From Hyphomicrobiales bacterium (GTDB lineage Bacteria > Pseudomonadota > Alphaproteobacteria > Rhizobiales > JANPGK01), in the NCBI GenBank assembly GCA_031423895.1, contig JANPGK010000002.1, positions 20,837 through 84,836 on the forward strand: DNA of 64,000 nucleotides, read 5' to 3'. The notes beneath the pieces are model-generated. The model searched no databases. It was not told where the DNA came from and saw only the letters and a list, made by a program, of their open reading frames with translations. Each line of letters starts with the position of its first letter. Position 1 is the first letter of the stretch. A program made the position numbers and the translations under genes. Shown in pieces: positions 52,761 to 53,703 of the stretch.

Positions 52761-53165
52761 CTATGCGCTGTGATCCTTCGTCGCAAATTGCGAGGCAGCC
52801 CATGTGGCCACCATAGCACCACCCACCATTAACAGGGATTTAAGGCCGTAAGCAACTTTGAAGGATTCAAAAGTTGTATGGGCTGGATATAGTTTTAGAG
52901 CAGGAAAATAGGATTGAATGCCTCGATTTAGGCCTTCAACTGCATTTTTATAAACAGAAAATGCACTTTGTACGGTTTGATTTTGTGCATCTTTGCCATG
53001 CGCCCAATAGCTATGCTTCACGCCACCTATACGCTCATTCAAAAGGCGGTCGAACTCAGCTTGAGAATGTTTTTTGCCAATAAATTCTTTTACATGATAA
53101 ACATAATCATGAATTGTAACGGGGCGGCTATTGCTATTGTTGCGGTTATTTGTATAAGTTGTCAT
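52761..53165 (-). CDS. AT-rich tail-anchored protein (family A-like, shared anchor module)
   Basis: 134 aa. The C-terminus FKVAYGLKSLLMVGGAMVATWAASQFATKD is nearly identical to that of the neighbouring ORF. Confidence 0.6.
   Translation of the reverse strand: MTTYTNNRNNSNSRPVTIHDYVYHVKEFIGKKHSQAEFDRLLNERIGGVKHSYWAHGKDAQNQTVQSAFSVYKNAVEGLNRGIQSYFPALKLYPAHTTFESFKVAYGLKSLLMVGGAMVATWAASQFATKDHSA
52771..52864. repeat. conserved 3' anchor module, copy 1
   Basis: 94 nt, 84 identical to 53249..53342 by manual alignment. Visibly GC-richer than the rest of the gene. Confidence 0.85.
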
Positions 53166-53238
53166 ATAGTGATTCTTATATATTATAATTTTAAATGTAA
53201 GTGCTATTTTCTATTTAAAACCCCACAATCAAATGCTG

Positions 53239-53703
53239 CTAAACCACTTGATCCTTCGCAGCAAATTGCGAGGCCGCCCATGTGGCCACCATAGCACCAC
53301 CCACCATCAACAGGGATTTTAGGCCGTGTGCGGTTTTGAAGGCATCCATACCAGCATAAACAGGGAATGGCGAGAAGTTACCCTTGAATGTTTTGAGTTT
53401 TTTATTAATAAACTCCACAACAAGATTATAAACCGCATCTATTTCATGAGCAACAATATTTTTAACGTCTTCACAATATTGTTTAGAGCTAACAAATTTA
53501 CCAAAGTTACGATCAGATTCAACTAACACAACAGGGAAGTTCTCTAAATGATTTTTACAAGCTTTTTCATATTGTTCAATTCTTGATTTAATTGGATTCA
53601 CCGAGTGCCATTCAACAAAATTCTTAAACTCAGCATAAGCACCTTGTTCAGTGCCACCCTTTTTGATCAAAAAATCTAAGTGATCGCCAAGTGAATTCGT
53701 CAT
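53239..53703 (-). CDS. AT-rich tail-anchored protein (family A-like, shared anchor module)
   Basis: 154 aa with GGAG upstream of the ATG. C-terminus FKTAHGLKSLLMVGGAMVATWAASQFAAKD. Confidence 0.6.
   Translation of the reverse strand: MTNSLGDHLDFLIKKGGTEQGAYAEFKNFVEWHSVNPIKSRIEQYEKACKNHLENFPVVLVESDRNFGKFVSSKQYCEDVKNIVAHEIDAVYNLVVEFINKKLKTFKGNFSPFPVYAGMDAFKTAHGLKSLLMVGGAMVATWAASQFAAKDQVV
53249..53342. repeat. conserved 3' anchor module, copy 2
   Basis: See 52771..52864. Confidence 0.85.

Follow-up and report, generated by a model that had tools for sequence, protein, structure and literature searches.

Probable gene conversion at the anchor-coding 3' ends of two adjacent orphan genes in a Hyphomicrobiales bacterium

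The contig JANPGK010000002.1 of the Hyphomicrobiales assembly GCA_031423895.1 contains two adjacent genes for small orphan proteins that share almost identical 3' ends. Both are located on the minus strand of a stretch of 64,000 nucleotides (positions 20,837 to 84,836 of the forward strand of the contig), which is referred to as the window in the following and whose own numbering is used throughout. Gene A (52761..53165, minus) is an open reading frame (ORF) for the orphan protein P0001 with 134 amino acids, gene B (53239..53703, minus) encodes the orphan protein P0002 with 154 amino acids, and both proteins are included in the NCBI annotation. Comparison of the two genes suggests that A and B are probably old tandem paralogues whose anchor-coding 3' ends became alike through interlocus gene conversion over a short tract and were subsequently maintained by purifying selection.

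The shared block comprises 94 nt and is present as a direct repeat with a start-to-start spacing of 478 nt. The copy at 52771..52864 (minus) covers approximately codons 101-132 of A, the copy at 53249..53342 (minus) approximately codons 121-152 of B, and both are read in the same codon phase. The two copies are identical at 84 of 94 positions (89.4%); blastn and a repeat finder agree on this and reproduce the coordinates and counts of the original prediction for the shared 3' ends of the two ORFs. The longest exact run between the copies is 32 nt. Mismatches are concentrated at both edges of the block, with only three of them in the inner 67 nt, which are thus about 95% identical. A segment of 66 nt within the block encodes the 22-residue peptide GLKSLLMVGGAMVATWAASQFA, which forms residues 107-128 of A (52782..52847, minus), where it is predicted by hydropathy to be a transmembrane helix, and, according to the ORF translation, residues 127-148 of B (53260..53325, minus). 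The two coding segments differ at four sites, and all four differences are synonymous, so that the earlier statement that both blocks encode the same peptide is correct. The ratio of four synonymous to zero non-synonymous changes further indicates that both copies appear to be translated and constrained.

For a codon-wise comparison, A and B were aligned without gaps from their stop codons and analyzed in sliding windows of 15 codons. Nucleotide identity per window was 0.18-0.51 in the upstream regions of the genes, which are termed heads in the following, and rose to 0.93-0.96 within about 10 codons; the flanks adjoining the block are 31-51% identical. Identity along the two genes is therefore step-like and does not decay smoothly, as would be the case after a simple recent duplication. 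In the 22-codon core, the proportion of synonymous differences (pS) was 0.23, which corresponds to a synonymous divergence (dS) of about 0.28, and the non-synonymous divergence (dN) was 0.02. In contrast, the 44 codons directly upstream of the core showed a saturated pS of 0.74 and a dN of 0.89. Identity at third codon positions was 0.82 in the core versus 0.36 upstream. Over the final 33 codons, A and B specify the same amino acid at 27 positions, and at 22 of these the codons are identical, versus 12.2-12.7 expected with AT-rich or host-like codon usage (P = 2e-5 to 8e-5). In the heads, identical codons are found at 4 of 8 positions with the same amino acid. Protein constraint alone is therefore not a sufficient explanation for the codon identity in the block. 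Together, the step-like identity, the low pS of the tract, and the excess of identical codons indicate that the nucleotide identity arose more recently than the two genes. Gene conversion is recognized by a highly similar segment with sharp limits within diverged paralogues and by a synonymous divergence in this segment far below that of the adjacent homologous codons, and these results support the gene conversion considered in the original prediction.

The heads are not entirely unrelated. When the block is removed from the comparison, the best local alignment pairs residues 57-101 of A (52863..52997, minus) with residues 77-121 of B (53341..53475, minus). This alignment is ungapped and collinear over 45 residues, directly abuts the block, and has a score of 40 compared to 18.7 +/- 3.9 for shuffled versions of this segment, with none of 2000 shuffles reaching the same score. 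These pre-anchor regions are regarded as distant collinear homologues of each other, and alignment of the full heads gave p ~0.03. The first 56 residues of A and the first 76 residues of B could not be aligned. Thus, the previously noted low upstream similarity applies at the nucleotide level (0.18-0.51) but only in part at the protein level, and the description of the heads as unrelated was overstated.

The pre-anchor region of B contains the motif TFKGNFSPFPV, which resembles the motifs SFGKTFHPYPL and TFDKNFKTYTL of the genes starting at 40289 and 39791, respectively. These genes belong to a trio of tandem AT-rich genes with tail-anchor topology (39791..41343, plus), encoding proteins of 155, 154, and 181 amino acids, which are the closest relatives of B and, via B, of A. 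In blastp comparisons, B matched the products of the genes at 39791 (E = 1.3e-4) and 40289 (E = 0.003), the matched region comprising the anchor and the pre-anchor motif, and the members of the trio matched each other with E = 3e-11 to 3e-4. A profile of the trio supported its relation to A and B weakly, with 5-9 bits, and the link between A and the trio depends on B. The collinear homology of the heads and the likeness of B to the genes at 39.8-41.3 kb indicate that A and B are old paralogues and not a fresh duplicate. In a repeat comparison, the tails of the trio showed no homogenisation at the nucleotide level.

According to the proposed history, A and B would have diverged to saturation as tandem paralogues of a lineage-restricted, AT-rich gene class. 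Later, a short non-reciprocal recombination with a tract of about 70-95 nt would have replaced the anchor-coding 3' end in one gene with the sequence of the other. Afterwards, the tract would have gained few, mostly synonymous changes (dS ~0.28), with the 22-residue anchor remaining free of amino-acid replacements. Tandem direct copies at close spacing, here 478 nt, are the usual substrate of such conversion, and the exact run of 32 nt is close to the minimum length commonly cited for RecA-dependent recombination. The lack of any replacement in the anchor despite a dS of about 0.28 points to purifying selection on the exact helix sequence. This selection could, for example, serve helix-helix packing through a face of Gly, Ala, and Ser residues or a shared insertion route. 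In the anchor of A, small residues are spaced in an i, i+4 pattern (G116, A120, A124). Judging from this spacing and from the lack of amino-acid changes, identical helices might allow A and B to pair or to use one common partner. The recombination mechanism as well as any interaction between A and B are putative.

Several points weigh against this history, and the first of them concerns base composition. The block has a GC content of 0.53-0.56 versus 0.25-0.44 in the heads (100-nt windows), and the flanking sequences have 55-65%. The earlier observation that the block is GC-richer than the rest of each gene holds, and it also applies to the GC content at third codon positions (GC3), which reaches 0.55 in A and 0.58 in B over the final 33 codons, versus 0.28 and 0.27 in the respective heads (Fisher p = 0.006 and 0.002). 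A pure amino-acid effect is ruled out by this persistence at third positions. Gene A as a whole has a GC content of 0.42 and a GC3 of 0.35, and the GC3 of neighbouring host-like genes is 0.53-0.60. In nine other genes of the window with similar architecture (see below), GC3 shifts in the same direction from head to tail, by about +0.10 on average; the GC effect is therefore partly class-wide, and the excess in A and B is marginal. This marginal excess of the tract (GC3 0.55-0.58) beyond the class-wide shift is not predicted by simple conversion between AT-rich genes and would need an additional assumption, such as a GC bias of the conversion, a donor richer in GC, or the choice of codons for the helix. 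Furthermore, the tract is short, its dS is based on about 17 synonymous sites, and a value of 0.28 implies that the conversion event was not recent. No sister strain or species with the locus was found in the searches described below; the neighbouring penicillin-binding protein gene has at most 58% identity to its relatives, and the only other occurrence of the locus is from the same strain. Finally, membrane insertion and expression of A and B are predictions from the sequence.

Conversion would not be needed if an entire gene had recently been duplicated in tandem to give A and B, after which the heads diverged extremely fast by diversifying selection and indels and the anchor was kept by purifying selection. 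The tandem layout, the faint collinear homology of the heads, and the orphan status of apparently fast-evolving genes without relatives fit such a scenario, and the head dN (0.89) exceeds the dS of the tract (0.28) roughly threefold, as the scenario requires. It would, however, demand a dN/dS of about 3 throughout roughly 100 codons in addition to a length change of 20 residues. Moreover, the head third positions are at random level (0.36) and codons match at only 4 of 8 positions, so that the synonymous sites of the heads look saturated and not diverged by 0.28. Other tandem sets in the window (39791/40289/40798 and 44752/45311) have no tail preserved at the nucleotide level. A recent duplication is accordingly unlikely.

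Somewhat less likely again is a chimeric or cassette-like origin, in which a 3'-end segment consisting of the anchor and the stop region was duplicated or captured and fused to a new head, with the block serving both as anchor and as recombination handle. The sharp boundary of the block and the N-terminal 56 residues of A and 76 residues of B that cannot be aligned would be expected in this case. The host-like GC3 of the tract, compared to 0.27-0.28 in the heads, is also in line with a captured segment, and because the copies share their codon phase, recombination between them would yield an in-frame fusion of the B head to the A tail. Against such an origin, the 45 residues adjoining the block are homologous and collinear, so that unrelated sequences were not joined at this boundary, and no integrase, attC-like site, or transposase is found beside the pair, which is flanked by the PBP1A gene and a porin gene. 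Furthermore, there are only two copies. A 50-nt probe from the block with up to 3 mismatches detected only the two known copies in the 64-kb window (0 expected from shuffles), a tblastn search with the peptide across the window did not reveal a third copy, and none was present in the databases searched. The cassette-like head exchange suggested in the original prediction is therefore not supported; the absence of the module elsewhere in the window and in the databases is an outcome that the prediction itself had named as speaking against it.

It is quite improbable that the block is conserved as a functional DNA or RNA element such as a terminator, a regulatory RNA, a promoter of the downstream gene, or a protein-binding site. 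Each copy is located 60-175 nt before the start of the next gene, and in both genes the 3' part of the block can pair with downstream sequence that is followed by a U run. In B, a terminator-like hairpin is predicted across the stop codon (53217..53275, minus; z = -2.86, with 1 of 200 shuffles folding as well). Its 5' arm CCUCGCAAUUUGCUGC lies within the block and its 3' arm GCAGCAUUUGAUUGUGGGG past the stop codon, followed by UUUU, and only the last ~15 nt of the block may double as the 5' arm of such a structure. Downstream of A, a candidate terminator-like stem of 8 pairs with a short T run, identified by consensus match only, is found ahead of the PBP1A start codon (52708..52736, minus), and this same stretch is 81% complementary to the block bases 52782-52797 (inverted repeat I6). 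In contrast, the block on its own has no significant RNA structure (z = -0.57 and -0.90), there is no sigma-70-like promoter on its coding strand, and neither an Rfam family nor a tRNA was detected in the 64-kb window. The exclusively synonymous changes in the core point to the peptide as the target of selection, and nine further ORFs with unrelated sequences also end in hydrophobic helices. The alternative of a strong constraint at the nucleotide level, which the original prediction had raised, thus finds no support in the fold scores or in the core changes.

An assembly artefact, in which a collapsed or chimeric repeat mimics a shared end, can practically be dismissed. Short-read assemblies do break at this repeat, and a 4765-nt contig of the independent Logan assembly of SRR20217181, which is 100% identical to 53278..58042 of the window, ends inside the block at 53278, but a genuine repeat is expected to interrupt contigs in this way, and the sequence of B and of 65 nt of its block in the contig agrees exactly with the window. 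In addition, 10 positions distinguish the copies, the frame and stop codon are intact in each of them, and both proteins were called in the NCBI annotation.

The encoded proteins have a common architecture. The head of A is polar and predicted to be all-helical without an N-terminal hydrophobic segment, and it is followed by a single C-terminal hydrophobic helix and the 6-residue polar tail TKDHSA. B is built in the same way and ends with the tail AKDQVV. In Kyte-Doolittle plots with windows of 17 residues, the tail regions reach 1.53 (A) and 1.39 (B), compared to head maxima of 0.16 (A) and 1.29 (B). Lys residues precede the hydrophobic stretch in both proteins, and a Trp or Phe residue and a short mixed-charge tail with Lys and Asp follow it. 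Both proteins have one moderately hydrophobic stretch within the last 30 residues, a polar N-terminus, and no signal peptide, which is the topology of tail-anchored proteins. AlphaFold2 models based on an alignment of five sequences consist of helices and have low confidence for both A (predicted local distance difference test score, pLDDT, 42.7) and B (pLDDT 52.6), with the helices of B at residues 2-14, 19-55, 73-106, 115-125, and 129-151. These features suggest that A and B are proteins of the tail-anchor type, in which a helical head in the cytoplasm is followed by a single transmembrane helix near the C-terminus and a periplasmic tail, and that they are presumably inserted into the membrane.

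Database searches yielded no relatives of A and B outside the strain. In a word-indexed search of 5.8 billion protein clusters, A and B matched only themselves, with one member each, both from one NCBI contig of 117,145 nt. An exhaustive HMMER profile search of 1.84 billion representatives also returned only A and B themselves, and a profile of five related proteins of the window detected only those five among the 5.8 billion clusters. The block peptides were also not detected when used as seeds to scan species-representative genomes as well as viral and metagenome contigs. No match to B was found by tblastn in plasmid and phage records, a sequence profile search of the PDB gave nothing below E = 0.3, and an exact look-up of protein A returned no record. 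Comparison of A and B with Pfam and NCBIfam gave nothing significant; the best matches, YopE (E = 0.031) and a GrpE model (E = 0.002), are far short of the curated cut-offs. The best PHROGs matches had E = 0.015 or weaker, and PADLOC gave none. A look-up of ribosomal protein S20 for related genomes led to the same strain only, with the assembly from SRR20217181 as the sole other public occurrence of the locus, and this accession was not found named in any searchable paper. PBP1A has at most 58% identity to proteins from Hyphomicrobiales genomes and metagenome contigs, and no conserved neighbours were found around the PBP1A relatives.

Several known groups were considered for A and B and rejected. 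Stress proteins of the DUF883 or ElaB-YqjD-YgaM type were excluded as DUF883 matched neither A and B at E <= 10 nor the nine other ORFs at E <= 1. Sorting signals of the sortase or exosortase type (LPXTG, PEP-CTERM, GlyGly-CTERM) do not apply in view of the polar N-termini, the tails TKDHSA and AKDQVV, and the lack of a matching NCBIfam model. Integron cassettes were rejected since the block has no significant fold, is coding and selected at the peptide level, is flanked by the PBP1A and porin genes, and occurs in no other cassette. An identity as holins was considered and rejected as well, and membership in known phage or defence families was discarded in the absence of significant PHROGs or PADLOC matches and with the negative tblastn search of B.

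Partial homogenisation of paralogues has been described in other systems. In the mammalian TLR1/TLR6 pair, conversion is limited to the C-terminal region including the transmembrane segment (PMC2077338). As with A and B, these are tandem paralogues with N-terminal divergence and a C-terminal stretch of near-identical DNA, for which a fit to shared partners has been proposed as the reason. In contrast to the tract of about 94 nt in A and B, the TLR tract is about 900 nt long, and the heads of A and B are far more diverged. Furthermore, A and B are bacterial orphan genes for which no orthologues were found. A bacterial parallel is found in the Helicobacter pylori paralogues babA, babB, and babC, which have a C-terminal homology region of more than 90% likeness and form chimeras by conversion or intragenomic recombination (PMC4552749). 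Here, a variable middle or head region also stands beside a near-identical C-terminal region. However, the Bab adhesins are large beta-barrel proteins of the outer membrane that carry signal peptides and are encoded at dispersed loci, and their chimeras have been observed in populations, whereas A and B are small, of the inner-membrane tail-anchor type, encoded by adjacent genes, and known from one strain. Regarding architecture, the Escherichia coli tail-anchored proteins DjlC, Flk, and SciP/TssL resemble A and B in having a single transmembrane helix at the extreme C-terminus, a cytoplasmic head, and no signal peptide, and such proteins insert even with moderately hydrophobic helices (PMC6794478). 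They have no sequence similarity to A and B, and known tail-anchored proteins are few per genome compared to 11 AT-rich orphan candidates in 64 kb here. Tail-anchored secreted effectors of intracellular pathogens, such as LpPIP of Legionella, are also small, with a C-terminal helix and a short tail as anchor, and are encoded by lineage-specific genes (PMC12313075). This likeness is architectural only, as no secretion system, host association, or effector motif was seen in the window.

A and B are part of a larger set of similar ORFs. The window itself represents core chromosome with the genes for gyrase (gyrB), transketolase (tkt), PBP1A (mrcA), ribosomal protein S20 (rpsT), and MiaB (miaB) as well as for an ABC transporter. 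Among these genes, at least 11 low-GC ORFs (GC 0.27-0.42) encode proteins of 126-232 amino acids, each ending in a hydrophobic helix and a short polar tail. Besides A and B, these are the low-GC tail-anchor ORFs at 9786..10166, 12358..12942, 15487..15867, 18542..19003, 44752..45219, and 45311..46009 on the minus strand and 39791..40258, 40289..40753, and 40798..41343 on the plus strand. These nine ORFs have a GC content of 0.27-0.41 and are wedged between housekeeping genes of 55-60% GC, with the neighbour often just 3-10 nt away. The tails of the class comprise 5-12 residues and are predicted to be periplasmic. Subfamilies are formed by the 39791/40289/40798 trio, to which B is linked directly and A through B, and by the 18542/44752 pair (E = 9e-18). 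A shared block at the nucleotide level is found within the class only in A and B. The Pfam scan of the nine other ORFs revealed no family, and the same crude filter applied to 1.82 Mb from 160 control Hyphomicrobiales loci detected 0 low-GC ORFs of tail-anchor topology. The surrounding orphan tail-anchored class is more unusual than the conversion mechanism, which is ordinary.

Some further observations concern this class and other low-GC ORFs. At the start of the 181-aa gene of the trio, a 26-nt tandem duplication atgggaatatctgatttttttgggca/c with 25 of 26 identical positions is present at 40772..40823; the repeat length of 26 nt cannot be divided by 3, which puts the upstream copy of the ATG out of frame with the 181-aa ORF. 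A 162-aa ORF at 49733..50221 (plus; GC 0.46) is hydrophobic at both ends, the second stretch being located at the extreme C-terminus (VLLGAIGLSALYYIFMRTH). It is without a match in Pfam and might also be related to the tail-anchored class. Other low-GC ORFs without a tail anchor are found at 24646..25725, 41414..42394, 20090..20647, and 59433..59924 on the minus strand and at 63351..63722 on the plus strand. A Pfam scan of 24646..25725, 41414..42394, 20090..20647, and 63351..63722 gave no family. Core genes thus seem to alternate with AT-rich orphan islets in a mosaic-like genome.

Regarding expression, the A-B spacer (53166..53238, minus) has 25% GC and contains the TATAAT-like box ttataatat about 15-20 nt ahead of the ATG of A, so that A probably has its own promoter. 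The k-mers TTATAAT and TATAATA recur upstream of the genes at 39791, 40289, and 45311, and a search for a shared upstream motif of the whole class gave nothing beyond such generic TATAAT-like k-mers. The ribosome-binding site of B is a GGAG 8 nt before the ATG. Immediately 5' of this site, an operator-like palindrome with the structure CTTCACAA-TTGTGTATACACT-TTGTGAAG is located at 53724..53752, which includes the perfect inner 10-bp palindrome GTGTATACAC; related CTTCACAA/TTGTGAAG octamers are present at 53469 and 52645.

The A-B pair is located between the PBP1A gene on one side and the porin gene on the other. The PBP1A homologue (50224..52707, minus) has a basic N-terminal extension of about 115-170 residues rich in Pro, Ala, and Glu ahead of its membrane helix, and its relatives align only from query residues ~115-170 onward, leaving this extension unmatched. 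Upstream of B, three outer-membrane genes follow in a row (53772..56628, minus), encoding a 436-aa porin of the OMP_b-brl family, a PagL-like protein of 231 amino acids, and a protein of 267 amino acids that belongs to no family. The genes for the PagL-like and the family-less protein have a somewhat low GC content of 0.47.

The 3' ends of A and B provide a small but clear-cut case of partial concerted evolution in bacteria, in which the anchor is identical and the heads diverge freely, and suggest that the exact helix sequence matters and not hydrophobicity alone. If they are real and expressed, the surrounding orphan ORFs constitute an unrecognised lineage-specific protein class, which would be useful for studying the origin of orphan genes, their spread by tandem duplication, and their retention or silencing. 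A more far-reaching and rather doubtful reading is that the DNA comes from an uncharacterised Hyphomicrobiales-like lineage with a large, fast-evolving tail-anchored repertoire (at least 11 in 64 kb, about 1 gene in 6), which has grown by tandem duplication and has its heads reassorted in frame via the conserved anchor-coding end, with A and B as the one pair in which the recombination handle is still intact. If this were true, membrane-targeted effectors directed against a host or competitors, or a new membrane-scaffold system, would be conceivable.

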